From the IMG/VR virus record IMGVR_UViG_2778261065_000024, positions 1 through 49,328 of that record: a stretch of DNA of 49,328 nucleotides; one strand, given 5' to 3'. Within the stretch, counting starts at the first letter, position 1, and every line of letters begins with the position of its first letter. The position numbers and the translations under genes were made by a program. This DNA comes from a virus (taxonomy: Duplodnaviria > Heunggongvirae > Uroviricota > Caudoviricetes). Shown piece after piece: positions 1 through 49,328 of the stretch. A model generated the notes under the pieces. That model worked only from the letters and a program-made list of their open reading frames with translations. It did no database searches and was not told where the DNA came from.

Positions 1-1521
1 TTATTCAGGCTTTAATTTATTGATAATAGAATCTACCATTTTAATGCCTGCCTCATTGACTATGACTGAATTGACTACTCTATCAAAATAGTCTTCTATA
101 TGGTGGGAAAATAGGAAAGCAGCACTTGATGGTTTTTTGTTCTTTTCAACTGCAGATTGCAAGACTTCATGAGGCGGAATTTTAAACCTTTTGCATGATG
201 CAATGAGATATTCAAACTCTTCAAATGATAGACAAAAAATATTCTCTGTAGGGATATGATAGTTATGTTTAAACTTGTCATATATCTTATTCATCTCATC
301 TTTAGCATAAGTATTAGCTAGGATACTACCATTGCCTAAGAAAAGGTTTTTATATGTAATGCAAATGATATATGAGTTAGCCCTGAATGGAGCTATTATT
401 CGCTCATTAGAGTATATTTCTCGATTAACTTCGTGAGATTGTTCGATTGCTTTTAATACCGATTTCTTTATTTTTCCTGCAATATCCTCAGGGCGTAATG
501 TTACCATGCCTTTTTGGTGTATCTCAACGCCTTTAGCATCAATGAAAATATTTGCCTCAGTATGTGGAATGAAATAATCAACTACTTTATTATCTTTAGG
601 TAGTCGTTCTTTAAGGTATTTTTCGTTATGAAAATCAATTTCGCTTTCTTTTAGTATTAATTCCAGTGCATTTTCAAATACATTTCCAAAGCTATCCATG
701 AACTTCTCGGCATCAGTTCTTCTTAAAAGATCATATATGAACGTCTGTATGCTTGTTGAAGTCAGTTGTGTGTGTATCTGAAAATACTCTGAACCTTTTT
801 TTATTAATGGTTTTTCAAGGAAAGGTGATGATGAGTAGTATTCAAGCAAAGGTTTATCATAGGTTTTTGATTTGCAAAATGTAGATAGTTCATTGTAATT
901 TATTGATATTGCATCAAGAAATTTCTCAATGGTATTTCTAGGAATGATGTCAAATAATATAGTAAATGTATCTACATTCATTTTTCTCACGGGATGCTCT
1001 TCTGTTATGTGAGTTATTAATATGTAAGATAGCTTAAGAAAGTCTTCGATAGATACATTCGTGATAGTAAAAAAACTTGTCTTTATTTTATGGTTTTTTT
1101 CAAGTTCTGAAAATAGAAAGACTTGTCTGCTAATTGTGTTTAGAGCGTCAATTTTCTGGTAGATTCCTTGTTGGTATAGATTATTTCTAATGAAGAAATG
1201 CATGCCATTCTTCCTCTCAAGACCGATAGGAATAATGTTCAAGGTTTCATAAGTTTTTTGGAAGAGTTTTATTGCTTGATTTTTATCGAGGATTTTGAAT
1301 TTTTTATTCTTGCCAGTTACTGACGCAGACCACTTTAGACATAAATTAACAATCCAAGGCATGTGTCGTAACATGTGGATATTATCTTCAAATTTTTGTA
1401 AGTTATATTGCATACAGAATTCGATAAATAAATCAGGGGAATAACCTTGGATTTCTGAACGAATAGCATCCATTCTTAACTTTGCAACCGCATCAGATTG
1501 AATATCTAATTTTTGAATCAC
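1..1521 (-). CDS. hypothetical 506-aa protein; AT-rich cargo gene directly downstream of the prophage integrase; family not recognised
   Basis: Uninterrupted 506-codon ORF (TAA at 1-3) starting 12 bp after the int stop, same strand; visibly AT-rich relative to neighbouring phage genes; C-terminal half has VVDYF...IFIDAKG, which could be a PD-(D/E)xK-like motif (tentative). Confidence 0.7.
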   Translation of the reverse strand: MIQKLDIQSDAVAKLRMDAIRSEIQGYSPDLFIEFCMQYNLQKFEDNIHMLRHMPWIVNLCLKWSASVTGKNKKFKILDKNQAIKLFQKTYETLNIIPIGLERKNGMHFFIRNNLYQQGIYQKIDALNTISRQVFLFSELEKNHKIKTSFFTITNVSIEDFLKLSYILITHITEEHPVRKMNVDTFTILFDIIPRNTIEKFLDAISINYNELSTFCKSKTYDKPLLEYYSSSPFLEKPLIKKGSEYFQIHTQLTSTSIQTFIYDLLRRTDAEKFMDSFGNVFENALELILKESEIDFHNEKYLKERLPKDNKVVDYFIPHTEANIFIDAKGVEIHQKGMVTLRPEDIAGKIKKSVLKAIEQSHEVNREIYSNERIIAPFRANSYIICITYKNLFLGNGSILANTYAKDEMNKIYDKFKHNYHIPTENIFCLSFEEFEYLIASCKRFKIPPHEVLQSAVEKNKKPSSAAFLFSHHIEDYFDRVVNSVIVNEAGIKMVDSIINKLKPE

Positions 1522-1533
1522 AATAGGTCTCCA

Positions 1534-2547
1534 CTACAAATTATAAAGAGGATTTTTAGTCACCGCGTCTTCAAGGTGATCGGGCGAAAAGTGGGCGTAA
1601 ATCATGGTCATTTTTATATCGGCATGACCCAAAATATCACGCAGTACCAGTATGTTTCCGCCGTTCATCATAAAGTGACTGGCGAATGTATGGCGAAGCA
1701 CGTGGGTGCATTGGCCCTCCGGTAGGTCAATACCGGCCCGCTTTACTGCCCGCTCAAAGGCTTTTCTGCATGGCGTGAATAACTTTCTTCTGTTTTTGGG
1801 GAGTTCATCATACAGATCCTGAGATATCGGCACAGTACGGTTTTTCTTGCCTTTTGTTTTTGTATAAGTAATTCGGTATTTCGATATTTGATGGCCCTGC
1901 AGATTTTCGGCTTCACTCCACCGTGCGCCAGTAGCCAGGCATATTTTTGCAATCATTAGTAAGCTAGGGCTTTGAGATTCAGCACATGCCGCCAACAGGC
2001 GCTTGATTTCGTCCGTGGAAAGAAAAGCCAGCTCACCTTCGGCAATTTTGAAGGTCGGAAGTCCTGCCAGCGGGTTTGGTGCTGACCAGTGTCCTAGTTT
2101 TTTTAATGTACCGAACACAGATGATAGATTGCGCTGTTCAAGGTTTACCGTGCGGGGCTTAACGGGCGACATCAGCGTGCCATCTTCATTTCGCACTTCA
2201 CCTTTTAGCCGTGCTTCGCGGTATTTCGTAAAGTCACCGGCAGTCAGCTCTGAAGCGATGGGATCGCCCAGACCATTACAGATAATTCCAAGTTTCGCCA
2301 TGAGTCGCTTGGGGTCTGCGAGTGTTTGACCATACAGGGAATACCACAGCTCAATTAATTCTGATAGGTGTCGCCGATCTTCCTTTTCTCCCAGCCAAGG
2401 TTTCTTGTTTACCTCGTCCATGGTGAAATTCTCAAACGCAATGGCTTCGCCTTTCGTCGCAAATTGTTTGCGTACGCGTTTGCCATCTCGCCCGTTTGGG
2501 TAGCATTCACATAACCACTTTCCGTTCGGCTGTTTTCTGATGGTCAT
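1534..2547 (-). CDS. int: tyrosine integrase, P2/186 family
   Basis: 337 aa; N-terminus MTIRKQPNGKW..GKRVRKQFATKGEA and C-terminal HVLRHTFASHFMMNGGNILVLRDILGH typical of P2-family integrases; sits next to the repressor. Confidence 0.9.
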   Translation of the reverse strand: MTIRKQPNGKWLCECYPNGRDGKRVRKQFATKGEAIAFENFTMDEVNKKPWLGEKEDRRHLSELIELWYSLYGQTLADPKRLMAKLGIICNGLGDPIASELTAGDFTKYREARLKGEVRNEDGTLMSPVKPRTVNLEQRNLSSVFGTLKKLGHWSAPNPLAGLPTFKIAEGELAFLSTDEIKRLLAACAESQSPSLLMIAKICLATGARWSEAENLQGHQISKYRITYTKTKGKKNRTVPISQDLYDELPKNRRKLFTPCRKAFERAVKRAGIDLPEGQCTHVLRHTFASHFMMNGGNILVLRDILGHADIKMTMIYAHFSPDHLEDAVTKNPLYNL

Positions 2548-8551: not shown

Positions 8552-8740
8552 ATGCAGGACTATTTTTTGGAGTCTTTGAAGCTCCAGCGCATTGATTTTT
8601 TTCTTAAGCTTGTAGCGGCTAGTGAGTGTAGTGATGAAGAGAAGGGGCTGGCTCTGCAGTGGGTTTCTGAATTGACTGATGAACTCATGGCAAAAATCAG
8701 AAGCCACGAATACAACCGCTCAATGGATGTCATCAGCTGA
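8552..8740 (+). CDS. small protein (62 aa), possibly a Tum-like antirepressor N-terminal module
   Basis: ATG preceded by TAGGAGGAAAG; downstream of the LexA box; followed 10 bp later by a DinI-like gene. Confidence 0.45.
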   Translation: MQDYFLESLKLQRIDFFLKLVAASECSDEEKGLALQWVSELTDELMAKIRSHEYNRSMDVIS

Positions 8741-8750
8741 GGTGACTTTT

Positions 8751-8984
8751 ATGCGCATTGAAATAATGATCGATAAAGAGCAGAAGATTAGCCAGTCTAC
8801 CCTGGACGCCCTTGAATCCGAGCTTTACCGCAATCTGCGCCCCCTGTATCCCAAAACGGTAATCCGTATCCGTAAAGGTAGCTCTAACGGTGTGGAACTG
8901 ACCGGACTGCAACTGGACGAAGAAAGAAAACAAGTGATGAAAATTATGCAGAAGGTGTGGGAAGACGACAGCTGGCTGTATTGA
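8751..8984 (+). CDS. DinI-family protein
   Basis: 77 aa MRIEIMIDK....TVIRIRKGSSNGVELTGLQLDEERKQVMKIMQKVWEDDSW, resembling the DinI family fold; GAGGTG RBS. Confidence 0.75.
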   Translation: MRIEIMIDKEQKISQSTLDALESELYRNLRPLYPKTVIRIRKGSSNGVELTGLQLDEERKQVMKIMQKVWEDDSWLY

Positions 8985-9097
8985 TTTTGTCAATAGACGC
9001 TTGTTTTTACTAATCAAAAAGGGTTACATATGAGTGAGAGGCGATGTCAATCAGATATCGCCTTGTTTTTTGTCAAGAAAAGAATAATAGGCTAAAA

Positions 9098-9775
9098 ATG
9101 AAAATTAATAATGTAGCGTTACCAATATCTCTTGCTGTAATCCTAACTGGTTGCGTGCCACATGCTTCTAACCGAAATATCACTGCTATTGAAGTGGTGA
9201 AGCCTGCTATTGGGCAAAGTGCTACCGCCTACATGGGCGATCCCATTATCACATCTGCTACTGGATTTAAAACGGACGTACTAGAACTTGGTGCGGCTAA
9301 TGGTGCATTGTCTTCTATCGCTGCTGGTACATATTGCAGTGAGGGGAATGGAATTTACCGCAATTATCATAACCCTCAAGCTGTTGCGTTAAAAAATCTC
9401 TATGGGCAAATCGGTAACTATGTTGATTATGTTAGTTACGATGCTGCAAAAAATGAGATATCACCGCCAAATGGTACTTCTTATACTGCATCAGAAATTT
9501 CTATCAAACGTGTTCCTGATGGGCTGTGTCGAGTTAGTAACTCATTGGTTAAGACTATCGAATACAATGGAAATGCAGGCGGTGTAATGAAGTTCACCTA
9601 TCGTGAATTTGCAAACGATATGGCTCGTGCAGCATTTACAACAGATTTTTCTGTAGATTCTAAGGGAAGTGACGTTATCGCTTACAAAGGTGCCAAGTTC
9701 AAAGTGAACAAGGCTGATAACTCGTCTATTTCTTATACAATTATTTCTGGCTTTGACAAGGCTGTCACGTTCTAG
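9098..9775 (+). CDS. putative lipoprotein (cargo gene; function unknown)
   Basis: N-terminus MKINNVALPISLAVILTGC with lipobox LTGC; alternative start at 9044 with GAGAGG RBS; moderately AT-rich; lies between A and the packaging genes. Confidence 0.7.
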   Translation: MKINNVALPISLAVILTGCVPHASNRNITAIEVVKPAIGQSATAYMGDPIITSATGFKTDVLELGAANGALSSIAAGTYCSEGNGIYRNYHNPQAVALKNLYGQIGNYVDYVSYDAAKNEISPPNGTSYTASEISIKRVPDGLCRVSNSLVKTIEYNGNAGGVMKFTYREFANDMARAAFTTDFSVDSKGSDVIAYKGAKFKVNKADNSSISYTIISGFDKAVTF

Positions 9776-9879
9776 GTTTCACGCTTACTGAGTATGTTAC
9801 GATTTTGCACATTCTGCATAAGCGCGCATGTCTATGCTGCATGAGATCGCATGATCGTTTGAGGATCTTTTGTGTTAAG

Positions 9880-9904
9880 GCCCGCCAGTTCTGGCGGGCT
9901 TTTG
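9880..9904 (+). terminator. rho-independent terminator candidate downstream of the lipoprotein gene
   Basis: GCCCGCCAG-tt-CTGGCGGGC hairpin followed by TTTTG. Confidence 0.5.
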
Positions 9905-9948
9905 CGTAGATCATGCAGGTGCATGAAAACCACTACATAAAGCGGGCA

Positions 9949-9967
9949 GGCGTGGCGGGGATACGAG
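9949..9967 (+). other. candidate cos (cohesive end) site of the 186-like prophage
   Basis: GGCGTGGCGGGGATACGAG resembles the P2 cos cohesive end GGCGAGGCGGGGAAAGCAC as I recall it; correct strand relative to Q; the recalled sequence is not verified. Confidence 0.3.
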
Positions 9968-10077
9968 CGCGCGCTCATGGTTGAATTAATGAAATTATGG
10001 TGTTAAATAGGCTAGCTTTTTAAGTCGTGAATATTCAATTTTTCAACTCATTTTTTTCATAGGGAGGAGTAATTGAC

Positions 10078-10776
10078 ATGGTTATGTTAGTGGATGACTG
10101 TCCACGATGTGGATCACAAAAAATAGCGTTTGATGTTAATGGGCTGAATTGCACTAGGGTTTACAATGCATTGGGCGGGGGTAAAACATACGAGTACGAG
10201 GTCTATTGTGTTTGCCGAGAGTGTCATAAAACGACAATGTTTCTTTGCAGACCTTTAACGAAAAATAAAACTTTAGATGGCTATAATTGGGAAAGTGGAA
10301 TATTCGGCTTAAAGGAAGTTGCAGAGGTTGTTAGGCCTATATCACCGGCAGACTTAGCAGTAGAGGAGCCACCAGAGTTCTTACCTGAGCATATCAATAG
10401 TGCATATGAGGAAGGGGCGAAATGTTTGGCTATAGGTTGTTATAATGCAGCAGCAACCATGTTTAGGCTTTGCCTTGATTATGCCACAAAAGGACTTCTT
10501 CCTGATGGGGAGCAAGGGCCTGCGCAAAAAATAAGGAGAAGCCTAGGGTTAAGAATGGAGTGGTTATTTGATAATCATCTACTGCCTGAAGCTTTAAGGG
10601 AACTAGCTGAATGCGTTAAAGATGACGGAAATGATGGAGCGCATGAAGGTATTTTGGATAAAGCTGCTGCTGAGGATCTTGAAGATTTTACCTATCTTTT
10701 TTTAGAACGGCTTTACACTGAACCTCAACGCCTTATCGAAGCCAAGACAAGGCGTGAACAAAGAAGAAACAAATAA
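10078..10776 (+). CDS. zinc-ribbon protein with DUF4145-like C-terminal domain (cargo gene, candidate defence)
   Basis: 232 aa; strong RBS AGGGAGGAG; N-terminal CPRCG...CVCRECH (C4 zinc ribbon); C-terminal VKDDGNDGAHEG resembles the GN..AH signature I associate with DUF4145; sits between candidate cos and the Q stop. Confidence 0.75.
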   Translation: MVMLVDDCPRCGSQKIAFDVNGLNCTRVYNALGGGKTYEYEVYCVCRECHKTTMFLCRPLTKNKTLDGYNWESGIFGLKEVAEVVRPISPADLAVEEPPEFLPEHINSAYEEGAKCLAIGCYNAAATMFRLCLDYATKGLLPDGEQGPAQKIRRSLGLRMEWLFDNHLLPEALRELAECVKDDGNDGAHEGILDKAAAEDLEDFTYLFLERLYTEPQRLIEAKTRREQRRNK

Positions 10777-19170: not shown

Positions 19171-19701
19171 TTACGCTCTTAATAAACTTAAATAACTTTT
19201 TATGCTTTGGCAAAAAGGGAAAAGGTCTATTTTAATTTTCCAGTTTTTTTTGTTTTGAACCCCAGAAGCAATAATAGAACCGTCCCAATATTTTATTCCA
19301 TTTTTGCCGGTCTTTTTTGTTAACTCAAAACTTAATGCGTGAATAATTTTATTGCAGCATTCGCGTATAGAATCTTTAACATGACCATCTATAACAAAAA
19401 GTATATTTTCATGTTCTTCAAATGCTTCTTTCTCAGGTGAGTAATCTGGGTTCCACTCATGTTCACTAGTGTCTTGGAGAATTCGTAGTTTTGTACAAAG
19501 GCTAATAAGATTGTTGCTAATGGTATATTCCAACCATCCGTTGTACGATAACTCCTCCATTTCAAATTCAGTTACTATAGAACCATCATATACTTTCTGT
19601 GTGGAATATATACGCTGTAAATAAAATTCAGATGAACAGCATAATTGCTCAATTATTCTTGCGTGTTCTTCTATAGCGTAATAATCAATTGGATGGCTCA
19701 T
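19171..19701 (-). CDS. hypothetical protein (AT-rich moron between S and V, antisense to the late operon)
   Basis: 176 aa from ATG 19701 (ORF extends to 19740); markedly AT-rich; opposite strand to the flanking tail genes; no recognisable family. Confidence 0.7.
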   Translation of the reverse strand: MSHPIDYYAIEEHARIIEQLCCSSEFYLQRIYSTQKVYDGSIVTEFEMEELSYNGWLEYTISNNLISLCTKLRILQDTSEHEWNPDYSPEKEAFEEHENILFVIDGHVKDSIRECCNKIIHALSFELTKKTGKNGIKYWDGSIIASGVQNKKNWKIKIDLFPFCQSIKSYLSLLRA

Positions 19702-19732
19702 TCTTTTACCTTTCTTTGATTGGAATTGTATT

Positions 19733-19750
19733 TGTGTCATTTACCACACA
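19733..19750. promoter_or_regulatory. TGT-N12-ACA dyad upstream of gene V (late promoter activator site candidate)
   Basis: TGTgtcatttaccacACA about 50 bp upstream of the V start. Confidence 0.35.
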
Positions 19751-22224: not shown

Positions 22225-23642
22225 GCACAAAATTTTATACCCTGCTGACGGATATTGGCGCGGCGAAACTTGCCAGCGCCGCCGCGCTCGGTGTGCCGCT
22301 AAAAATTACCCATATGGCGGTGGGCGATGGCGGCGGAACATTGCCAACGCCGGACGCCAAGCAGACAGCATTGGTAAATGAGAAACGCCGGGCTGCGCTG
22401 AATATGCTCTATATCGACCCGCAGAACAGCAGCCAGATTATTGCTGAACAGGTGATCCCTGAAAACGAGGGCGGTTGGTGGATACGTGAAGTGGGCCTGT
22501 TTGATGAGTCCGGGGCATTGATTGCCGTGGGCAACTGCCCGGAAAGCTATAAGCCGCAACTGGCTGAAGGCAGCGGGCGTACCCAGACCGTGCGCATGGT
22601 GCTGATTACCAGCAGCACGGACAATATCACCCTGAAAATCGACCCTGCCGTAGTGCTGGCAACCCGCAAGTATGTGGATGACAAGGTACTGGAGCTGAAG
22701 GTGTACGTGGATGATCAGATGGCAAAACATCTTGCCGCACCGGACCCGCATTCACAGTATGCACCCAAAGAAAGTCCGACGTTTACCGGGACACCAAAAG
22801 CGCCAACTCCAGCGGCAGGGAATAACACCACGCAGGTTGCGACCACCGCGTTTGTTCAGGCGGCACTGACGGCTCTTATTAATGGTGCGCCAGCCACGCT
22901 GGACACGCTGAAAGAAATAGCCGCAGCCATTAACAATGATCCGAATTTCAGTACCACCATTAACAATGCGCTGGCACTGAAAGCGCCGTTGTCGAGTCCG
23001 GCACTCACCGGAACGCCAACAGCCCCCACTGCTGCACAGTCGGTCAACAATACACAGATTGCCACCACGGCTTTTGTGAAATCGGCGATTGCAGCAATGG
23101 TAGGTTCTGCACCTGCGGCACTGGATACACTGAACGAACTGGCGTCGGCGTTGGGGAATGATCCGAACTTTGCCACGACAATGCTTAATGCGCTGGCAGG
23201 TAAACAACCGCTGGACAATACGCTGACTAATTTGAGTGGAAAGGATGTCGCTGGTCTTCTCGCATACCTTGGTTTGGGAGAAGCGGCAAAACGGGAGGTG
23301 GGGACAGGGGAAAATCAGATACCGGACATGGCTTCTTTTGCCAGTGGTGATGGATGGATGAAATTACCCAACGGGAAAATCCTGCAATATGGTCGAGGTG
23401 CGGTTACGCCAACATTATCGACGCAAACAATGAGAATTACATTCAGCATCCCTTTTCCTAAAAAAGTGGACTGCGCCATGCTTACCCATTCTGGTGATGG
23501 TGGTGCGCCTTTAGGCGCTGGACGGGGATTCGTGATGACTGCAGAAGGTCCAACACTAACCGGTTTTAATTCCGCTTACAGAACTGCATCAACCAGCTCC
23601 ACAGTATCGATGAATTACAGTTGGTGGGCTGTTGGTGAGTAA
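22221..23642 (+). CDS. H: tail fibre protein gpH
   Basis: 473 aa; conserved N-terminal about 150 aa shared with 24680-26293; repeated NDPNF / ATTAFV motifs. Confidence 0.85.
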   Translation: MSTKFYTLLTDIGAAKLASAAALGVPLKITHMAVGDGGGTLPTPDAKQTALVNEKRRAALNMLYIDPQNSSQIIAEQVIPENEGGWWIREVGLFDESGALIAVGNCPESYKPQLAEGSGRTQTVRMVLITSSTDNITLKIDPAVVLATRKYVDDKVLELKVYVDDQMAKHLAAPDPHSQYAPKESPTFTGTPKAPTPAAGNNTTQVATTAFVQAALTALINGAPATLDTLKEIAAAINNDPNFSTTINNALALKAPLSSPALTGTPTAPTAAQSVNNTQIATTAFVKSAIAAMVGSAPAALDTLNELASALGNDPNFATTMLNALAGKQPLDNTLTNLSGKDVAGLLAYLGLGEAAKREVGTGENQIPDMASFASGDGWMKLPNGKILQYGRGAVTPTLSTQTMRITFSIPFPKKVDCAMLTHSGDGGAPLGAGRGFVMTAEGPTLTGFNSAYRTASTSSTVSMNYSWWAVGE

Positions 23643-23662
23643 TTTTATTCAGGGTGATTTAT

Positions 23663-24106
23663 ATGAACGAATATGTTTATAGCGCAAGGCATAATGCTTT
23701 TTTCCCTGTGGATATGATTGATAAATATAAATCAGAGGGATGGGATTTATCAGATGCAAAGGAGGTGAATCAAAATATTATCAGTGAGTTTATGGCTGAA
23801 CCGCCACAAGGAAAAATCCGTATTGCCGGAGATGATGGGCTGCCTGCGTGGGCAGATATTCCTCTACCCACGCATGAAGAGCTTATTGAAATTACTGAAT
23901 CAGAAAGACAGCTACTAATTAACCAGGCCAACGAATACATGAACAGTAAGCAATGGCCCGGTAAAGCCGCTATTGGTCGTCTGAAAGGTGAGGAACTGGC
24001 GCAATATAATTTGTGGCTGGATTATCTGGATGCACTGGAGCTGGTTGATACCTCCAGTGCACCAGATATTGAATGGCCTACGCCTCCAGCAGTACAGGCC
24101 AGATGA
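23663..24106 (+). CDS. G: tail fibre assembly protein gpG
   Basis: Follows H; C-terminal ...SAPDIEWPTPP resembles the C-terminus of the convergent paralogue; ORF opens with GTG at 23654. Confidence 0.75.
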   Translation: MNEYVYSARHNAFFPVDMIDKYKSEGWDLSDAKEVNQNIISEFMAEPPQGKIRIAGDDGLPAWADIPLPTHEELIEITESERQLLINQANEYMNSKQWPGKAAIGRLKGEELAQYNLWLDYLDALELVDTSSAPDIEWPTPPAVQAR

Positions 24107-24680
24107 CCTCCGGCGCGGTGCTGGTATCTGTTGCCGTCACCGCGTCAATGTAATCCAGCACGGCGTTAAGTCGGGTTGTTTCTGCCTGCGTCAACTTCCG
24201 TCCGGCCTGCAATTTCAGTTGAATCAGACTGATGGAGGCCATCGCAGCATCAATCAGTGACTGGCGCTGTGCTTCTGCTGCTTCTACTGCGGCGTTATGC
24301 TGTGCCTCAGTATCTGTCACCCATTTCTCACCATCCCATTTATCGTATAGCGTTAACGGGGCGATAGTGGTTGTATTTTCAGGGTAATTACCCGGCACCG
24401 TGATTTCTTTTGCTTCTCCTGTTTCGGTGCTATAGATAATTTCACCGCGATGGTCTGGCATATATTCCCATGAGTTTAAATCTACTGAACGGCAGATTGC
24501 ATAACCAGCCTTATATGTGCCAGGAGCATCTAAACAGGAATATGCCGGGATACCGACACCAACAGCAAGATATTCATTTGAAGTGGAAATATATTCCCGT
24601 GTTTCACCATCATAGTTATAGACGGTAATATTCCCCGCCTTCGTGGCAATAAGTTCGCTATTTAATACGGCTTTATCCAT
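24078..24680 (-). CDS. G: tail fibre assembly protein gpG (second prophage segment)
   Basis: 200 aa, downstream of the second H gene; C-terminal ...STAPEVIWPVLLEA; 3' end overlaps the other G ORF by 29 bp. Confidence 0.8.
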   Translation of the reverse strand: MDKAVLNSELIATKAGNITVYNYDGETREYISTSNEYLAVGVGIPAYSCLDAPGTYKAGYAICRSVDLNSWEYMPDHRGEIIYSTETGEAKEITVPGNYPENTTTIAPLTLYDKWDGEKWVTDTEAQHNAAVEAAEAQRQSLIDAAMASISLIQLKLQAGRKLTQAETTRLNAVLDYIDAVTATDTSTAPEVIWPVLLEA

Positions 24681-26293
24681 TATGCAGCTCTCACGATATA
24701 GTTAAATGCAATATTTCGTGGACGGGTTTCGCTCCCACCTGTGTTACCAATACTCCCTCGTGTATGTAGCGTTGGTGATGGAATCAGAGTTCCTCCGACA
24801 TCGGCAGCATCAAGCCCCCGGCCTTGCGTATATGCTCTTCTGAAGATTGTCGCCAGTTCCCATTCCTCTTTTGAATCATACCCATCGTTGGCAACAACAA
24901 TATGGCGGTGCTTCTCCAGCATCCCAGTCTGAATGCTCAATAAAGCACGTCCAGCATCAACGCCTCGTCCGTCATCCCAGCCACGAATAAACTCACCACG
25001 GAGATCAGGTAGTTTCCCTGATGGATATGCTGTAGCAAGATGGGGATATTTAACCTTATCAAAGGCGGCGCCATTGCATTTCAACCAGCCTGTCGGCAAA
25101 GTGGCTGAAGGCCATGGAACAGGCACACCAACGGGTAATGCAGAGCCTTCTCCCAAACCAAGGTAATCAAGAACCCCCTGCGTGCTGGGCTTACTAAGAA
25201 TGGCACGTCCAACACTTGTCAGTGCGGTTAACGCGGCGCGATCTGCACCTGTAAAATAAGGGAGTTTATCTGCTGCTGTAGCAAGTCCTGCCAGCGCCGT
25301 CAGGGTAGCATCCTTCGGTTGCTTACCCGCAAGCGCGTTAGTCATGGTTGTCGCAAAATTCGGGTCGTTACCCAGCGCCGCCGCCAGCTCGTTCAGCGTG
25401 TTCAGTGCGTCAGGTGACGAGTCTACAAGCGCGGCAATCGCGGCCATAACATAAGCCGTGCTTGCGATCTGAGTATTATTAGTCCCCTGTGGCGCTGTTG
25501 GCGTTGTTGGCGTTCCGGTCAGTGCCGGGCTGTTTAATGGGGCTTTCTTGTTTGTTTCATCCATTACCACCTTAACGGCTTTTGGTGTCGCTGCCAGTGT
25601 TTCAGACGTGCTGTTCGTGGCGCTACTGAGCTGAACAATCCCTTTTTGTGTTGTGGTGGCATTCTGGGCGGTATATTTCCCGCTAGCCAGGTCATATGCA
25701 GCCTTAACCGCTTTCGGTGTTGCGGCCAGTGTTTCTGATTCACTGTTAATTGCACTGCTTAACTGAGTGAAACCTTTTGCGGTCAGCGAGGCGTCCGGGT
25801 GGCGTCGTGACTGTTCGTGCTCTGAGATTTTGTCATCCACATATTTGCGGGTTGCCAGAACCACAGACGGGTCGATTTTCAGCGTGATAGCTTCGGTATT
25901 CGTGACAACCAGAATCATGCGGATAGTCTGGGTACGACCACTGCCTTCCTGCAACTGCGGTTTGTACGTTTCCGGGCAGTTCGCCACCGCAATGAGTACG
26001 CCTTCATCATCATAAAGCCCAATCTCACGTATCCAGAATCCGCCCTCGTTCTCAGGGATGATTTGCTCCGCAATAATCTGGTTCTGGTTGTTCGGGTCAA
26101 CACTCAGAAGATTCAGCGGTGCAATGCGTTTCTGGTTAATCAGTTTTGTTTGTGCAGGGTCTGGTGTTGGTAACACACCATTTGCATCACCAACGGCCAT
26201 TTGCGTCAGATTCAGCTTACTGCCGAGCATCGTCGCGTTAGCCAGTCGTGCCGCGCCCTGATTAGTCAGAATGGCGTAGTATTTCACTGTCAT
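24680..26293 (-). CDS. H: tail fibre protein gpH (second segment)
   Basis: 537 aa; conserved N-terminus (AVGD..LPTPD, IPENEGG.WIRE) shared with 22221-23642. Confidence 0.85.
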   Translation of the reverse strand: MTVKYYAILTNQGAARLANATMLGSKLNLTQMAVGDANGVLPTPDPAQTKLINQKRIAPLNLLSVDPNNQNQIIAEQIIPENEGGFWIREIGLYDDEGVLIAVANCPETYKPQLQEGSGRTQTIRMILVVTNTEAITLKIDPSVVLATRKYVDDKISEHEQSRRHPDASLTAKGFTQLSSAINSESETLAATPKAVKAAYDLASGKYTAQNATTTQKGIVQLSSATNSTSETLAATPKAVKVVMDETNKKAPLNSPALTGTPTTPTAPQGTNNTQIASTAYVMAAIAALVDSSPDALNTLNELAAALGNDPNFATTMTNALAGKQPKDATLTALAGLATAADKLPYFTGADRAALTALTSVGRAILSKPSTQGVLDYLGLGEGSALPVGVPVPWPSATLPTGWLKCNGAAFDKVKYPHLATAYPSGKLPDLRGEFIRGWDDGRGVDAGRALLSIQTGMLEKHRHIVVANDGYDSKEEWELATIFRRAYTQGRGLDAADVGGTLIPSPTLHTRGSIGNTGGSETRPRNIAFNYIVRAA

Positions 26294-26931
26294 GCGTTTA
26301 CTCTCAGATTATCAATTAAATGAATGGCCGGGGCAGGGAAATAATCCCCTTCGACAATAATGGACTCCGGGGTGTAGGGATAAACCGTCAGGGCATCGCC
26401 GTGATAGCATCCCGTACCAACGAAAATCTTTCCGTTCACACTCAGACTGATCGCCAGCCCTGTCAGATGGCGACTTACTGGTTTTGCATCCGCAATAAGG
26501 CGCTCAAGTTCCTGATACATTTCATCGGTGATGCCCTGATCAAGTACTCCGACAACAATGCGAAATGTTCCTGGCTCCTCGTTGAGTTGCCACCACTCCT
26601 TTACTTCAATCAGGTAGCCGAGAGGCTCCACGGCTCTTCGCAGTGCGCTGATGGTCCCTTTGTGTCGGTGTATCAGCCATGCATCACGAATCACCTGTCG
26701 CTTTGTCTCTTCCGGCCAGTTGCGATCCCAGCGGTCAACGGAAAACGCCCAGGCGAGATAAGGCAGCAGATGCGCCGGGCAGGTGTCCGGCGACCACAGC
26801 GTGTTGAGGTCTACCGGAATGTCTGTAATGCGTGTTCCGACGGCTTCGGCACAACGCATGAAATTGCTGGCTGATGGTGGTAACAGTGAATTACTCATTA
26901 CGCCCACCTTCGCTGATGGTGAATGACTCAC
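26290..26931 (-). CDS. I: baseplate/tail protein gpI (second segment)
   Basis: 213 aa; paralogue of 21619-22224. Confidence 0.85.
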   Translation of the reverse strand: MSHSPSAKVGVMSNSLLPPSASNFMRCAEAVGTRITDIPVDLNTLWSPDTCPAHLLPYLAWAFSVDRWDRNWPEETKRQVIRDAWLIHRHKGTISALRRAVEPLGYLIEVKEWWQLNEEPGTFRIVVGVLDQGITDEMYQELERLIADAKPVSRHLTGLAISLSVNGKIFVGTGCYHGDALTVYPYTPESIIVEGDYFPAPAIHLIDNLRVNA

Positions 26932-27787
26932 AGCGCGCCGCCTGTATGTCGCTGATGGCCATATTCTGTGTGGGTTCGATTATCTCCACGCGTTGCACAC
27001 CGTGCACATGCAGTGCGGCAGCAATGGCGGACAACGCCACGTCCTGACCGATAAGCCCCTGCTCAGCCAGCCACTTCCTGAACGACGATTCAGCCGCAGC
27101 CAGAATAGGTTCGGATTCCGGGCCGGGGTAAAAGTACAGTTTTGCATTCAGCCGCCATGTCACGATTCTGGCGCTCTGTACGGTCAGGCGGTCGGCCACC
27201 GGGCGGGTATCCTCTGCATTCAGAACGGCGCGAACGGTATTAAGCAACGCCTCCGTTGCTGTGCCGTCGCCTTCAGTGGACAGGATGGAAACCGTCACAT
27301 TTGCCGGAGACGGACTGATAGCCCGCGCATCACGCACCAGACCACTGGCGCTGCGGGCAAAATACTCGTATGCACCTGACGGGCCAGCAACACTCAGGCC
27401 GTCGTACGCCCGCTGCGCCCGCAGTCTCAGCGAGGTGTCGCTCTCCATCACCGCGTCGGTGGTATCCGTTGCCGGAGTGATAACCAGGCGCTTTGTGTTC
27501 ATATTGCCCGCGAGGTTGTCCAGGTCTGTCCCGGCGCTGTGGCTTAACATGCAGGCGCGTGCACCCTCATTGACCCGCTGGCGTAACAGCATTTCACGAA
27601 ACGCTGTTGTCTGGGCGATAACGTTCAGGGGTTCCGATTCCAGCTCCAGCGCGGCGGAGACGGCTTCACGCTGTTCGGCGGGATAAGCTGCAATCATCAT
27701 GGCCTTTGTGTCAGCCAGAATTGCCTCAAAATCAGGCTCCGCGATGATGGCGGGTTCCGGTAACTGGGAAAGGTCAACGGCAGGCAT
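26891..27787 (-). CDS. J: baseplate assembly protein gpJ (second segment)
   Basis: 298 aa; paralogue of 20718-21626. Confidence 0.9.
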   Translation of the reverse strand: MPAVDLSQLPEPAIIAEPDFEAILADTKAMMIAAYPAEQREAVSAALELESEPLNVIAQTTAFREMLLRQRVNEGARACMLSHSAGTDLDNLAGNMNTKRLVITPATDTTDAVMESDTSLRLRAQRAYDGLSVAGPSGAYEYFARSASGLVRDARAISPSPANVTVSILSTEGDGTATEALLNTVRAVLNAEDTRPVADRLTVQSARIVTWRLNAKLYFYPGPESEPILAAAESSFRKWLAEQGLIGQDVALSAIAAALHVHGVQRVEIIEPTQNMAISDIQAARCESFTISEGGRNE

Positions 27788-27790
27788 GAT

Positions 27791-28141
27791 TTACTCTCTC
27801 AGCGTGATGGTTAATTCAACATTCTGCATGGTCTGCATGACGGTGCCCGACAGCGTCACCCCGGCGCGGCCTCCTGCCTTCCAGACAACATCGATGGCAT
27901 CCAGGGCAATGCGGGGTTCCCATCGTGTCAGTGCAATCACGGCAGCACTCATGCATTGCAGACGCGTGGTGTTATTCATGGGTTCGTCAATCAAATCAGG
28001 CACAAGGCTGCCATATTCCCGTCGCATAACCCGGCTTGCCAGCGGGGTGGTCAGGATGTCCCTGACTGACTGTTTCAGGTGCTCCGTATCGTTCAGGTTT
28101 CCCGTCCCGTCCGGATTCATTCCTGTGTAGCGGGTTGTCAC
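27791..28141 (-). CDS. W: baseplate protein gpW (second segment)
   Basis: 116 aa; paralogue of 20372-20731. Confidence 0.85.
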   Translation of the reverse strand: MTTRYTGMNPDGTGNLNDTEHLKQSVRDILTTPLASRVMRREYGSLVPDLIDEPMNNTTRLQCMSAAVIALTRWEPRIALDAIDVVWKAGGRAGVTLSGTVMQTMQNVELTITLRE

Positions 28142-38328: not shown

Positions 38329-38709
38329 TCAAAAAGAAGACTGGAACTCTTCTGCTCTGCGCTCAATTTCTGCCATGTAGGATGTACGGGCTAACTCATG
38401 CGCATTGGGTGTCATAATGCTGATTAGCTGATACTTATCTGGATATAAGAAATGGCGGGAGTAAACAAGATAACTGTTTGATTTACGCGAGGCGGCAGGT
38501 AGCTTTGCAGGCCACGGCTGTTCATCAGGTAAACGAATGTGAATCTTAAAAACAAAAGAATCACGAAGACGCCCGCTATCTTCCCACTGCCCTTCGTTGC
38601 CAAAGACTGAGGGTAAAGATCCGCCGTTTTTCCATGACTGCAAAGCATGTGCATATTTACGAGCAACTGCGGGGAGTTCTATGTCATTGTGGACAGAGAC
38701 TTTAATCAT
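38329..38709 (-). CDS. YafO-family toxin (ribosome-dependent mRNA interferase family)
   Basis: 126 aa; blocks GSLPSVFGNEGQWEDS, FKIHI, SYLVYSRHF..YQLISIMTPNAHELAR..MAEIERRAEEF align with E. coli YafO as I recall it. Confidence 0.75.
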   Translation of the reverse strand: MIKVSVHNDIELPAVARKYAHALQSWKNGGSLPSVFGNEGQWEDSGRLRDSFVFKIHIRLPDEQPWPAKLPAASRKSNSYLVYSRHFLYPDKYQLISIMTPNAHELARTSYMAEIERRAEEFQSSF

Positions 38710-38718
38710 GGCCCTGCC

Positions 38719-39312
38719 TTAATGGAACGTTGGATCTTCAAGGCCCAGCTTTTTATGTTCACTGCGGATAAGTGCGTGAACCTGATCGGCGGTAACACCC
38801 AGATCAGCATCTGAAGTTTTCTTCGGCACATGCGTGCTTTCAATGAAGGATAAAATATCTTCAATCGTATAGCGAAGCGTCGCAGCGGAACGAGCAAAAG
38901 CGACAATCTCTTTTCTCAGTTCCGCGTTACTTTCAGGTACGCTTTTCAGCGCAACCTTTGCAGCCTCGACAAAACTTGCACATACCGCAATATGACGGAA
39001 AAGGCTTTCAAACCCTTCCTGAGTCTCTTTTTTCTGATTTTTCAGAATAATAGGGAGCTGCTTTTCTTCCCATTCGATGCGAAGGTTTGCCCTGTGTGTC
39101 TTCATCCTATCAGCCAGGTTAAGCATATAACTGGTGGCCTCATCAATAGGAAGGTATGCCACAGAATCCTTTACGTCCTGGAGGGATAGCGTAGACGTAC
39201 TGTGCCGGGAGATTGATAAGTCATGATGCACAATGCTACTGGCAGGAACAGGGGCGAGAGCCACCGCCAGCGCTGCGGCCATAGATGTTATTTTATTTTT
39301 TTTACTGCTCAT
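38719..39312 (-). CDS. hypothetical protein with signal-peptide-like N-terminus, co-oriented 10 bp upstream of the YafO-family toxin
   Basis: ATG at 39312 after AGGAAAGG; N-terminus MSSKKNKITSMAAALAVALAPVPASS; ORF opens at 39363; unlike YafN. Confidence 0.6.
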   Translation of the reverse strand: MSSKKNKITSMAAALAVALAPVPASSIVHHDLSISRHSTSTLSLQDVKDSVAYLPIDEATSYMLNLADRMKTHRANLRIEWEEKQLPIILKNQKKETQEGFESLFRHIAVCASFVEAAKVALKSVPESNAELRKEIVAFARSAATLRYTIEDILSFIESTHVPKKTSDADLGVTADQVHALIRSEHKKLGLEDPTFH

Positions 39313-39484
39313 AATTGCCTTTCCTGCCAATAATCGTGAACCACTGCCGGAATGATAGCGCAAAAAATCACCCGCTGAAACGAATTATCCTTGCGGCAAA
39401 ACTAGCCCGCGTCAACCTCATACCACGCCAGCGTCGATTGATAGTTTTGTGCCGCCTCGCGTAATGCCTGATAGTCAATCTTGC

Positions 39485-40012
39485 TCACTGGTTGCCTCCT
39501 TTGCGGAGTAGCGCCAGCTCTTCCTGCGCCTGCATCATGCGATTGACCTGAACGCGTGTGCGTCGAACGGCAAAATTAAATTGAAACATGAGCCGGAACA
39601 TTTCTGAGGCTTCCGTGTGAACATCATGGAGAGGTGACAGGCGGTACAGTTCTGCCTCCGTAGCTTGTTGAATCAATGACAGATCAAATTGAAGTGCGGG
39701 TCTGGTACATTTTGCACATCTGGCAGCAAGCTCCGGCATCAGTTTCTTAACGAAGGTGTTTTGCACCGCTTTGTTGAGTTGTGTCTGCATCCAAATCGCA
39801 AATTTCAGCGAACGCATAAATTTGATAGCCTCGGGCAGCGGCAGATAGATCATGCTAGTAGATTTGGGTGGTTGGTGAATCATCTTCACGGATACGCGAT
39901 TTCGCAGCGTTCGGAAAATCGTGTTCCCAACAACAGCTTCTACGGATACAGGACAGGGAGCCAGACCAGCCCGCAGTGCTTCTTTCATTAGCATGTATTC
40001 GTATTTTTTCAT
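39485..40012 (-). CDS. hypothetical protein (175 aa) downstream of parR
   Basis: ORF co-oriented with parMR; no recognisable motifs. Confidence 0.55.
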   Translation of the reverse strand: MKKYEYMLMKEALRAGLAPCPVSVEAVVGNTIFRTLRNRVSVKMIHQPPKSTSMIYLPLPEAIKFMRSLKFAIWMQTQLNKAVQNTFVKKLMPELAARCAKCTRPALQFDLSLIQQATEAELYRLSPLHDVHTEASEMFRLMFQFNFAVRRTRVQVNRMMQAQEELALLRKGGNQ

Positions 40013-40072
40013 TGTGTTTTCCTCGTGCGGGGCGACAGTGCGCCCCGATAAAATTAAAAGCCGTCAAATTCG

Positions 40073-40384
40073 TCATTCAGGAAATAATGCCCGGATATTC
40101 CCTGCCATCTGGCTGGTTATCTGTGCGGTTGGTGCTGTCTGTGACGCGAGGCGTTCTGTCCTGGTTTGTGTCACTGATAACGCCTCATCGTCAGCCCATG
40201 CGGCCAGTCGGTAAGCCTCTGCCGGATTCATTTTCAGAAGTGCCAGCCCGGCCAGAAAAGCCATGCGTTGGACGCTTTTGCGGGCTTCTGGTGTAAGGCT
40301 GTCCAGCCAGGCGCATGCTTCGCCTTCGTTCTTGACGGCGGCGGGCTTCAGATAGAAACTTATCCGTCTGGTTGGTGTCGTCAT
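40073..40384 (-). CDS. parR: ParR/StbB-like centromere-binding partition protein
   Basis: 103 aa; ISFYLKPAAV...LDSLTPEARKSVQRMAFLAGLAL resembles R1 ParR; immediately downstream of parM. Confidence 0.7.
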   Translation of the reverse strand: MTTPTRRISFYLKPAAVKNEGEACAWLDSLTPEARKSVQRMAFLAGLALLKMNPAEAYRLAAWADDEALSVTQTRTERLASQTAPTAQITSQMAGNIRALFPE

Positions 40385-40388
40385 TGGT

Positions 40389-41348
40389 TTACTCCTTGTT
40401 CATTGCGTACAGCCCATTAACCAGAGCAAACTGTGGCACCCCGTCCGCGATGAAAGTCGCATTAACTCCGCAGGCTTCGCGGATAGCGGGTGCCACAATC
40501 TCCGCTCCTCCACCGACAACCATCACCCGCCCGTAACCGGAAAAACCCGCCAGCACGCGGATCACACGTTGTTTCAGTGTTTCTTCCTTTTCACGAATAA
40601 CCGCCACCAGGCTGGCGTAATGCGCGTCATTGTGGATGTGCTGGCGCAGCCAGGCTTCATCATGGCGATGTTCGATAATGGTATTGGCGATGTGGTGACT
40701 GGTACGCATACCGTTAGTGGCCATCACCGACAGTACGGCATCGGCCATCAGGGAAACGCCTACGTGTGGATCGCAAAACACCTGGCTGATACCTGCCAGT
40801 TGTCCCTGAACCTTTGCCACATCCAGCGTGGTTCCGCCTAAATCCACAATCAGCAGGGATTCAAACGGACTCATGTCAGCCAGTGCTTTAAAACCAGCCG
40901 GAATGGATTCAGGCATAACCCGTACGTTACGGATAGTGAATGCTTTTCCGTTCTGGTATTCCACCGGGCGCATGACGTTTGCTTTTTTGCGGTTGATGTT
41001 GGCCATGTCCGGCTGTGCGTTTGTGTCGAAATACTCGCTCAGTGGCAGGGTGACAACCACATCCACCTCCTGTGGTGTGATGCCTGATTTGACCAGCGCG
41101 TGATGAATGGCAATGACATTCACATCGCTGTACTGGTATTGCGTGTCGGTCGTCTGGACAAAGCGATCGCTGACCGGATCAAAACCATAGCGCACGCCAT
41201 CAAGCATGTAGTTCGCGGGCTGCGTGCCACCGAACGGCGCAGACCATTCCGACTTGAAGCTGTTCGGGCTGATAGCGTTGCGGCGTTCGCCGTTCTCAGT
41301 CCATGCCAGCTTGATGTTGGTGGAGCCGTCGTCGATACAAATTTTCAT
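40389..41348 (-). CDS. parM: ParM/StbA actin-like partition ATPase
   Basis: 319 aa; MKICIDDGSTNIKLAW, SPNSFK, YSDVNVIAIHHAL, VMPESIPAGF, LIVDLGGTTLDV, VMVVGGGAEI match ParM/StbA conserved blocks. Confidence 0.9.
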   Translation of the reverse strand: MKICIDDGSTNIKLAWTENGERRNAISPNSFKSEWSAPFGGTQPANYMLDGVRYGFDPVSDRFVQTTDTQYQYSDVNVIAIHHALVKSGITPQEVDVVVTLPLSEYFDTNAQPDMANINRKKANVMRPVEYQNGKAFTIRNVRVMPESIPAGFKALADMSPFESLLIVDLGGTTLDVAKVQGQLAGISQVFCDPHVGVSLMADAVLSVMATNGMRTSHHIANTIIEHRHDEAWLRQHIHNDAHYASLVAVIREKEETLKQRVIRVLAGFSGYGRVMVVGGGAEIVAPAIREACGVNATFIADGVPQFALVNGLYAMNKE

Positions 41349-48272: not shown

Positions 48273-48338
48273 CCCTTTATTATTCTTACGTTTTACAAAC
48301 TGGAAATGTCTTTCCTCGTTTCACCGGAGGGCTTGCCA

Positions 48339-49328
48339 ATGGCAATTAAAGCGCTCGATGGTGGACGGTATAAAGTGGATGTTAGACCGCGTGGCCGAAG
48401 TGGACGTCGGATTCAGCGGATTTTTAAGAAAAAGGCAGATGCAGTGGCCTTTGAGCGTTATGTTCTCAGCCACATGCACGATAAGGAATGGCTTGAAAAG
48501 CCAACAGAGCAACGTCATCTCTCAGATCTGCTTCCGTTATGGTGGGAATTGGGTGGACGCAATAAGCCATATGCTAACGGCGTTCTAACCAGGTTGAAAA
48601 AAATCATCAAAGAAATGAATGATCCAAGGGTTAGCCAGATTAATGCTCGTTTCATGGCCGCTTATCGAAGCTCCCGTTTATCCTTGGGAGTAAAAGAGTC
48701 TACTGTTCGGCGTGATGAGTCGGATCTCGGAGGAATGTTTACACTCCTGGCAAATGCCGGGGAATTTCACGGAGAAAATCCGCTCCGCGCCCTCCCCTCT
48801 TTGAAACGAAAATCACCCGAAATGACGTATCTCACCACGGAAGAAATCGCCAAATTACTGGATGCAGTAAGCGGTGATGCCCGGCGGATTACGCTACTTT
48901 GTCTCAGTACTGGGGCGAGATGGGGAGAAGCGAAAAATCTGCGCGCGGAACACATCATCAATAATCGCGTGACGTTTAACAAAACTAAAAACGGAAAAGT
49001 TCGAATTATTCCTGTCTCTGATGAAGTTGTTAGTGAGATCAAAACAAAGAAATCCGGCCTTTTGTTTGACGTCAATTATGAGGAATATCGCAAGGTGCTT
49101 CGCAGTGTTAAGCCAGACCTACCAAAAGGACAGGCTGTACATGTTCTACGCCATACCTTTGCTGCTCACTTTATGATTAATGGAGGAAATATACTTACGC
49201 TCCAGCGAATTATGGGGCACGCCACGATCCAGCAAACTATGACCTATGCGCACCTCGCTCCTGATTTCCTCCAGGATGCAATTTCACTTAATCCGTTAAA
49301 AGGAGGCATCCACATTTCATCCACATAA
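48339..49328 (+). CDS. int: tyrosine integrase, P2 family (second segment)
   Basis: MAIKALDGGRYKVDVRPRGRSGRRIQRIF N-terminus like P2 Int; C-terminal HVLRHTFAAHFMINGGNILTLQRIMGH; ORF opens at 48306; TAA at the window end. Confidence 0.9.
   Translation: MAIKALDGGRYKVDVRPRGRSGRRIQRIFKKKADAVAFERYVLSHMHDKEWLEKPTEQRHLSDLLPLWWELGGRNKPYANGVLTRLKKIIKEMNDPRVSQINARFMAAYRSSRLSLGVKESTVRRDESDLGGMFTLLANAGEFHGENPLRALPSLKRKSPEMTYLTTEEIAKLLDAVSGDARRITLLCLSTGARWGEAKNLRAEHIINNRVTFNKTKNGKVRIIPVSDEVVSEIKTKKSGLLFDVNYEEYRKVLRSVKPDLPKGQAVHVLRHTFAAHFMINGGNILTLQRIMGHATIQQTMTYAHLAPDFLQDAISLNPLKGGIHISST

Follow-up and report, generated by a model that had tools for sequence, protein, structure and literature searches.

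Two P2-family prophage halves converge on one invertible tail-fibre cassette, a product of probable invertase-mediated inversion between prophages in Escherichia coli

How two prophages of the P2 family came to face each other at their tail-fibre genes, with the remainder of both tail gene sets missing, is the question raised by a 49,328-nucleotide stretch of viral DNA, which we refer to as the window. In agreement with the original prediction, ORF, Pfam and gene calls revealed two left halves, each running from int to the tail-fibre gene H and its assembly gene tfa (G), in converging orientation (Table 1). On both sides, the genes I, J, W, V, S, R, lysis, L, M, N, O, P and Q lie upstream of H, with replication protein A, repressor and integrase genes further upstream, and a full tail-fibre gene carrying the P2 H N-terminal domain PF12571 is found 5′ of each tfa. 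The two tfa ORFs overlap by 29 bp, as had been reported; the plus-strand gene encodes 150 aa if read from its GTG and 147 aa if read from the ATG at 23663, and the minus-strand gene bears the annotation tfaE in loci L001 and L023.

Table 1. Positions of the prophage halves, tail-fibre genes, invertible cassette and crossover sites in the window.
Feature	Position	Strand	Basis
Left half L(A) of 186-like P2-family prophage A	1534-23256	+	Pfam, gene calls
int of prophage A	1534-2547	-	Pfam, gene calls
H(A), hybrid tail-fibre gene, 473 aa	22221-23642	+	PF12571 + PF21882
Left crossover site, TTCTCGCATACC TT GGTTTGGGAGAA	23257-23282	.	Inverted repeat, 12-2-12 scan, consensus search
Invertible cassette X: Hv(gp53-like), tfa147 (rightward), tfa200 (leftward), Hv(collar)	23265-25161	.	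100% identical to L001, L004, L005
tfa147, tail-fibre assembly chaperone for gp53-like tip	23654-24106	+	PF02413 (Caudo_TAP)
Convergent tfa/tfa overlap, 29 bp	24078-24106	.	Native to cassette
tfa200, TfaE-like assembly chaperone for collar-type tip, 200 aa	24078-24680	-	PF02413 (Caudo_TAP)
H(B), native tail-fibre gene, 537 aa (constant part + collar-type tip)	24680-26293	-	PF12571, PF03406, PF07484
Right crossover site, native ixL(B), TTCTCCCAAACC AA GGTAATCAAGAA	25148-25173	.	Inverted repeat, 12-2-12 scan, consensus search
Left half L(B) of second P2-family prophage B	25174-49328	-	Pfam
int of prophage B	48306-49328	+	Pfam

The segment on the left (prophage A) carries int, the CI repressor, CII, a Dam methylase, replication protein A, Q/P, O, N, M and L, followed by lysis, R, S, V, W, J, I and the constant part of H; CI, CII, Fil and a DinI-like gene are its 186-like traits. 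The segment on the right (prophage B) carries the constant part of H, I, J, W, V, S, R, lysis, L, M, N, O and P/Q and, on its early side, a cargo region, replication protein A, a cox-like gene, the C repressor and int. Both are incomplete, as originally claimed, since Pfam detected no sheath, tube, tape-measure, U, D or ogr gene within the 49-kb window, and the full late set of FI, FII, E/E′, T, U, D and ogr that is contiguous with H-G in native relatives is absent from both sides. No invertase gene was detected in the window either, by Pfam or by tblastn with both invertase types (best E = 1.1). A tRNA search over the window found none, and the joint described below was not marked by any sharp change in base composition.

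The segments had also been said to carry TGT-N12-ACA late-activator sites on both sides with no activator gene in cis. This claim is weak: eight copies of this motif occur in the window versus 11.6 expected by chance; three of them (13574, 13632 and 19733) do lie at the expected late-promoter positions of prophage A, but the P/O intergenic region of prophage B contains none. The lack of ogr in the window was correctly noted, but it poses no problem because Ogr acts in trans, and we expect the tail and ogr half of prophage A at a distance of about 18 kb within the same contig.

The region in which the two halves meet (23265-25161) is, by its sequence, a Din-type invertible tail-fibre cassette of prophage B, of the kind represented by Mu G, P1 C and e14 P. 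It is flanked by a 27-nt inverted repeat that resolves into two 26-bp sites of 12-2-12 structure, inverted relative to each other and with complementary AA and TT cores. A consensus search for such crossover sites over the window returned these two matches (23257 and 25148) versus zero expected, and the ordinary prophages examined have exactly two sites each, in the same places. The right-hand site is identical to sites on the other strand of L004 (11121) and L001 (11993), and its half TTCTCCCAAACCAAGG agrees with the pix/hix-type consensus. The cassette encodes two fibre tips, Gp53-like_C with tfa147 and Collar with tfa200, each with its own chaperone and in convergent orientation. Both H frames read YLGLGE across the crossover site, so that an in-frame fibre results in either orientation; consistent with this, the flipped fusion of the constant part of H(B) to the gp53-like tip is an open ORF of 501 aa in L001, L032 and L034.

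Relatives hold the cassette in both states. Relative to H(B), it is oriented as in the window in L004, L027, L030, L031 and L036 and reversed in L001, L032, L033 and L034, with the sequence being 100% identical between the two flip states in L004 and L001. A Resolvase + HTH_7 invertase of 188-203 aa follows the block in native prophages, and it lies next to the identical cassette in L001, L004-L006 and L027-L036. Although a megablast search of 5,426 complete E. coli genomes showed the cassette block (23265-25165) to be widespread among P2-like prophages, three of these genomes match it at 99% identity or more, which makes the exact cassette rare. Cassette matches in the phage collection include phage pro483 and the "P2" prophage of O157:H43 T22. 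The exact tfa147 protein was present in 171 collection blocks, and in 87 of these the longest contig carrying it was shorter than 2 kb, which is about cassette size and suggests that short-read assemblies routinely break at the crossover sites. Exact tfa147 was also observed on a third P2-like backbone, locus L035. When the gp53-like tip is switched "on", H appears in RefSeq as two pieces, an "incomplete" pseudogene and a separate gp53-like ORF (L001:10873-12378, NZ_CP169399.1; L025:2221-3642). This split is an annotation artefact, given the open 501-aa fusion in L001.

The original prediction took the overlap between the two tfa genes as the junction between the prophages. That breakpoint is ruled out, because the overlap is a conserved feature of the native cassettes examined and ordinary prophages carry the cassette uninterrupted, with 100% identity. 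An identical 29-bp overlap was annotated in all six cassettes examined (L001, L021, L022, L023, L025 and L026), which belong to four different sequence types. Comparison with related genomes, which had been proposed as a check, thus showed the overlap to be ordinary, even though the arrangement around it was found in none of the complete E. coli genomes searched. Within the overlap, the C-terminal Trp-Pro codons of both tfa genes form an inverted repeat (TGGCCT...AGGCCA), and the C-terminal regions of tfa are the best conserved part (88-93%) between otherwise different cassettes; these regions may be a place where cassettes swap halves.

On sequence grounds, the sole abnormal joint is the left crossover site (23257-23282), about 800 bp to the left of the overlap, where the H constant part of prophage A replaces the invertase of prophage B. 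The left half of prophage A is 99.6-99.97% identical to the ssrA prophages of the complete genomes WEC, MFDS1019527 and ML35, and the A-type identity of these three nearest relatives, which holds within this range from 20000 onward, stops at 23282, 23291 and 23330. B-type identity begins at 23265-23269, and these limits together confine the exchange point to the crossover site. Past the left site, the three relatives carry three different cassettes that diverge 0-47 bp after it, and they share 14-61 bp with the cassette at the joint. The site itself has its TT core at 23269-23270, with an outer half that comes from ixL(A) and an inner half that is the cassette's. H(A) is accordingly a hybrid, being A-derived in its constant part to 23268 and having a variable C-terminus (Gp53-like_C) from a B-type cassette; the exact H(A) protein was found on one contig only and, among about 15 billion proteins, remains a singleton at the 90% clustering level. 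On the other side, positions 23269-28000 of the window are 100% identical to the B-type loci L004 and L005, indicating that the right site and everything to the right of it constitute a normal B prophage. The exact H(B) protein occurs on eight contigs, and those shown, the source contig aside, are ordinary prophages in which an invertase gene, or the contig end, follows the cassette.

The window corresponds to positions 455-49,782, approximately, of a 76,738-bp contig from the draft assembly GCA_002966065.1, which extends 26,956 bp past the window. In other genomes, prophage B lies between raiA and pheL, with int beside pheL-pheA and its ogr end beside raiA. Prophage A occupies ssrA in the genomes of its relatives, where the ogr end abuts ssrA and, toward csiD, a P4-type integrase island lies opposite the int end. 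Gene orientation relative to ssrA, pheL and raiA in WEC, MFDS1022581 and L009-L020 shows that prophages A and B are natively co-oriented. The distance from ssrA to pheL is about 18 kb in strain WEC, and the essential genes ffh, rpsP-rimM-trmD-rplS, grpE and nadK lie between the two sites. In the window, B is reversed relative to A and, by implication, so is the host DNA that adjoins B. The argument that homologous recombination between inverted prophages should give collinear hybrids, on which the original prediction relied, is therefore inapplicable here: integration sites fix the two prophages in the same orientation, and recombination of the ixL of one with the oppositely oriented ixR of the other yields the observed non-collinear product.

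Measured on strain WEC, the distance from int(B) through pheL and ssrA to ixR(A) is about 27,060-27,080 bp. Comparing this value with the 26,956 bp of contig past the window places the contig end about 110 bp short of ixR(A), and, judging by these distances, the source contig very probably ends there. Beyond the window it would then run from pheL to ssrA and on into the tail half of prophage A. The 5′ ends of the A and B invertases are about 93% alike from the predicted contig end point onward. The arrangement of two H genes converging on one cassette was found in none of the 5,426 complete E. coli genomes when searched with a 16-kb query in megablast and a 4-kb query in blastn; the best query coverage was 53% (16 kb) and 73% (4 kb), and matches always ended at one or the other crossover site. 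In the phage collection, matches were to the cassette only, and the arrangement was not found.

Since the joint lies inside a crossover site, we infer that an invertase was the recombining agent. We consider it probable that such an enzyme recombined the two prophages and thereby turned around a stretch of about 55 kb in the E. coli chromosome, giving a state that is represented by this single draft contig and would have been fixed or dominant in the culture. The order in each prophage would normally be the H constant part, ixL, cassette, ixR, invertase, tail genes and ogr. In the presumed starting state, the 186-like prophage A would occupy ssrA and prophage B the interval between raiA and pheL, about 18 kb apart and in the same orientation, which makes ixL(A) and ixR(B) inverted repeats. 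A serine invertase from either A or B could then recombine ixL(A) with ixR(B), and the stretch of about 55 kb that would be inverted comprises cassette A, the tail half of A, the chromosome from ssrA to pheL, the left half of B and cassette B. The predicted product would read A-left, cassette B, B-left (reversed), pheL to ssrA and the tail half of A (reversed), the first three of which would make up the window. Its reciprocal product would hold the invertase of A, cassette A and the invertase of B, with the two tail halves diverging; the length of the contig is what speaks for this second joint.

In favor of an inversion, the source contig passes unbranched through both crossover sites. That it does so, in contrast with the contigs shorter than 2 kb that are the longest in 87 of the 171 tfa147-bearing blocks, speaks for a cassette that is present here in one copy and does not flip. 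Hin and Gin invertase genes contain enhancers, and with the invertase genes and their enhancers about 50 kb away, the cassette would be nearly frozen. Other properties of these systems and of the locus count against the inversion. Din invertases need an enhancer-dependent and supercoil-dependent synapse, so inversion over about 55 kb should be inefficient. The inversion would also put the rpsP operon and ffh head-on to replication, although this orientation may in turn explain why the state is absent from finished genomes. If real, the arrangement would be rare or counter-selected, given its absence from 5,426 complete genomes.

The original prediction listed deletion, rearrangement and assembly artefact as possible origins. 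A rearrangement or an artefact is indeed needed, whereas the orientation of the prophages and the essential genes between them speak against a deletion. An assembly chimera is unlikely, though its chance is appreciable. It would require that two ordinary prophages had cassettes identical over at least the gp53-like end and that short reads were misjoined there, so that a two-copy 1.9-kb repeat with four flanks had H(A) paired with H(B) and neither H with its own invertase. Consistent with a misjoin, the source contig comes from a draft assembly, the arrangement occurs in none of the 5,426 complete genomes searched, the same cassette type recurs on a number of P2-like backbones, among them A-like ones with about 92% identity, and a contig end near ixR(A) would be expected if the repeat had already been used. 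However, such a misjoin requires that A's own cassette match that of B at about 100% identity over more than a read or insert length, whereas each of the three nearest A relatives has a different cassette that departs from this one within 47 bp of the site, the two co-resident cassettes of the complete genome FRIK944 are just 91% alike, and the exact cassette is as rare as described above (3/5,426 at 99% identity or more). An assembler that halted about 110 bp before ixR(A) is, moreover, unlikely to have crossed an exact 1.9-kb repeat blindly, and in about half of the blocks with exact tfa147 the cassette is confined to contigs shorter than 2 kb. Among 24 contigs examined for exact tfa147, the source assembly was represented by this one contig, a result that a collapsed repeat would mimic.

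The same inversion of about 55 kb could also have been made by RecA-dependent homologous recombination through inverted homologous stretches, either of the H genes or of cassettes in opposite flip states, and homologous prophage-to-prophage inversions are well known in E. coli. The H constant parts of A and B share 73-74% inverted homology over 250-340 bp, and the tfa region may be 88-93% alike between the cassettes of different prophages. We nevertheless give this route a very small chance, because the switch from A to B falls inside the 26-bp site, where the nearest relatives share 14-26 bp, too short for efficient exchange, and because there is no mosaic tract, the cassette being 100% B-type outwards from the core. 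A deletion between natively inverted prophages that removed both tail halves and everything between them would account for a window devoid of tail genes, ogr and invertase. It is nonetheless very unlikely, to the point of being excluded in practice: site-specific integration leaves the two prophages co-oriented, and a deletion between them would then yield a collinear hybrid, the essential genes ffh, rpsP-trmD-rplS and grpE would be lost, and the 26,956 bp of contig past int(B) match the length expected of host DNA plus the tail half of A.

An extension of the inversion, to which we attach a small chance, is that the four crossover sites of the two prophages form one reversible multiple-inversion system, which would act as a phase-variable lock on the prophages instead of being a single accident. 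The invertases would then reversibly flip about 55 kb that include ssrA, smpB, grpE, ffh, the rpsP operon and pheA; excision of both prophages would be blocked, with one cassette frozen between a pair of fibre genes and the other left between a pair of invertase genes. The Min system of plasmid p15B and the R64 shufflon have more than two crossover sites per replicon and several alternative inversions. Their sites are clustered within a few kb, whereas the four sites here would be spread over about 55 kb, with core genes between them.

A single inversion between prophages, the reading that we favor, can be compared with several known systems. The window shares with Mu G, P1 C and e14 P (Gin, Cin and Pin) the inverted 26-bp sites of 12-2-12 structure at the boundary between the constant and variable parts of the fibre, as well as two convergent fibre tips that each have a chaperone, and native copies of the present cassette share with them the serine invertase beside it. 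Unlike those systems, the cassette in the window has a fibre constant part on both sides and no invertase, and both tips are consequently fused to a complete fibre gene at once. Inversions between prophages of E. coli O157:H7 arise by homologous recombination, have their end points in two prophages and generate chimeric prophages. They involve long homologous tracts and give collinear hybrids, in contrast with the 26-bp site-specific crossover site and non-collinear products proposed here. Fin of Fels-2 acts on the Salmonella H segment. PinQ of Qin acts in trans on the P segment of another prophage, e14 (PMC12529663), and thus, like our proposal, provides a case in which the invertase of one prophage uses sites in another element. 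In the PinQ and Fin cases, both sites belong to one element, whereas one site per prophage would be used here.

The closest likeness in backbone family, cassette type and position after H is to the P2-like prophage cassettes of EPEC E2348/69 described by Goldberg et al. in 2014, which belong to a class shown to flip in E. coli cultures (PMC4272514), and to phage pro483 and the "P2" prophage of O157:H43 T22. These known cassettes undergo intra-prophage inversions of about 2 kb or form a three-site shufflon, and none joins two prophages. Our literature search found no direct precedent for an invertase-mediated inversion between prophages; as far as the literature was searched, the cassette itself is textbook, while its role as a bridge between two prophages is apparently undescribed.

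If the arrangement is real, a tail-fibre invertase can recombine the sites of two prophages and rearrange tens of kb of core chromosome, an outcome normally credited to homologous recombination. Both prophages would be split into non-excisable halves, since each attL/attR pair would now be inverted and neither prophage should be able to excise until the inversion is reversed, which would represent an unappreciated route to prophage grounding and chromosomal inversion. Both fibre genes would be complete at the same time, each with its matching chaperone, and a flip of the cassette would exchange tips between prophages A and B. If the arrangement is an artefact, it provides a clean case of identical invertible cassettes misleading short-read assemblers. 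Prophage finders would report the window as a single tail-less prophage of 49 kb, and the joint is easily misplaced; convergent, overlapping tfa genes should be taken to mark an invertible cassette, whose 26-bp sites deserve to be checked first.

Several further features were observed in the prophage A segment. Located 13 bp downstream of int(A) is a 506-aa ORF (1-1521, minus strand) whose G+C content is very low, at about 32-38%. It had no Pfam or PADLOC match but was present in more than 2,000 collection blocks, with the identical int adjoining it in all six loci shown and the DNA beyond varying, and it may be a cargo or defence gene of the prophage end. Another minus-strand ORF (19171-19740; 176-189 aa; 39% G+C) lies between S and V on the strand opposite to its neighbors. 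This low-GC, 189-aa ORF was considered as a hidden invertase and rejected, as it has no Resolvase domain and no tblastn match. It is kept in WEC, MFDS1019527 and ML35 (WP_000019234.1), has no domain match and looks like a moron within the late operon. The interval from replication gene A to portal gene Q (8679-10776) is a variable cargo slot that holds the DinI-like gene, a 243-aa ORF with no assigned function and a DUF4145 protein with a weak PADLOC match to PD-T7-4 (E = 1e-6); in relatives (L015-L020; L023:3631-6719) this slot holds a Cap4-nuclease gene pair, an AIPR protein or a P-loop NTPase.

The cargo slot of prophage B (38329-41348, minus strand) contains a YafO-like toxin gene (126 aa), a ParM/StbA-like actin segregation gene and two ORFs of 214 and 175 aa with no assigned function; in relatives of this prophage, a small Plasmid_stab_B gene adjoins the ParM/StbA-like gene. 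The whole B-type lineage has its tail operon FI-FII-E-E′-T-U on the strand opposite to H, the invertase, D and ogr, such that a 5.6-kb tail block is inverted relative to the P2 order (L004:13721-19296; L001:14593-20168; L027-L036), while the A-type prophages (L021-L023) and L035 keep the P2 order. The two cassette sites were the only scoring sites when loci of the B-type lineage were scanned for crossover sites. Lastly, in strain MFDS1022581 the ssrA site beside the B-type prophage holds a Stx2g-encoding lambdoid prophage (L037, NZ_CP169399.1:1180000-1229000), many genes of which are frameshifted.
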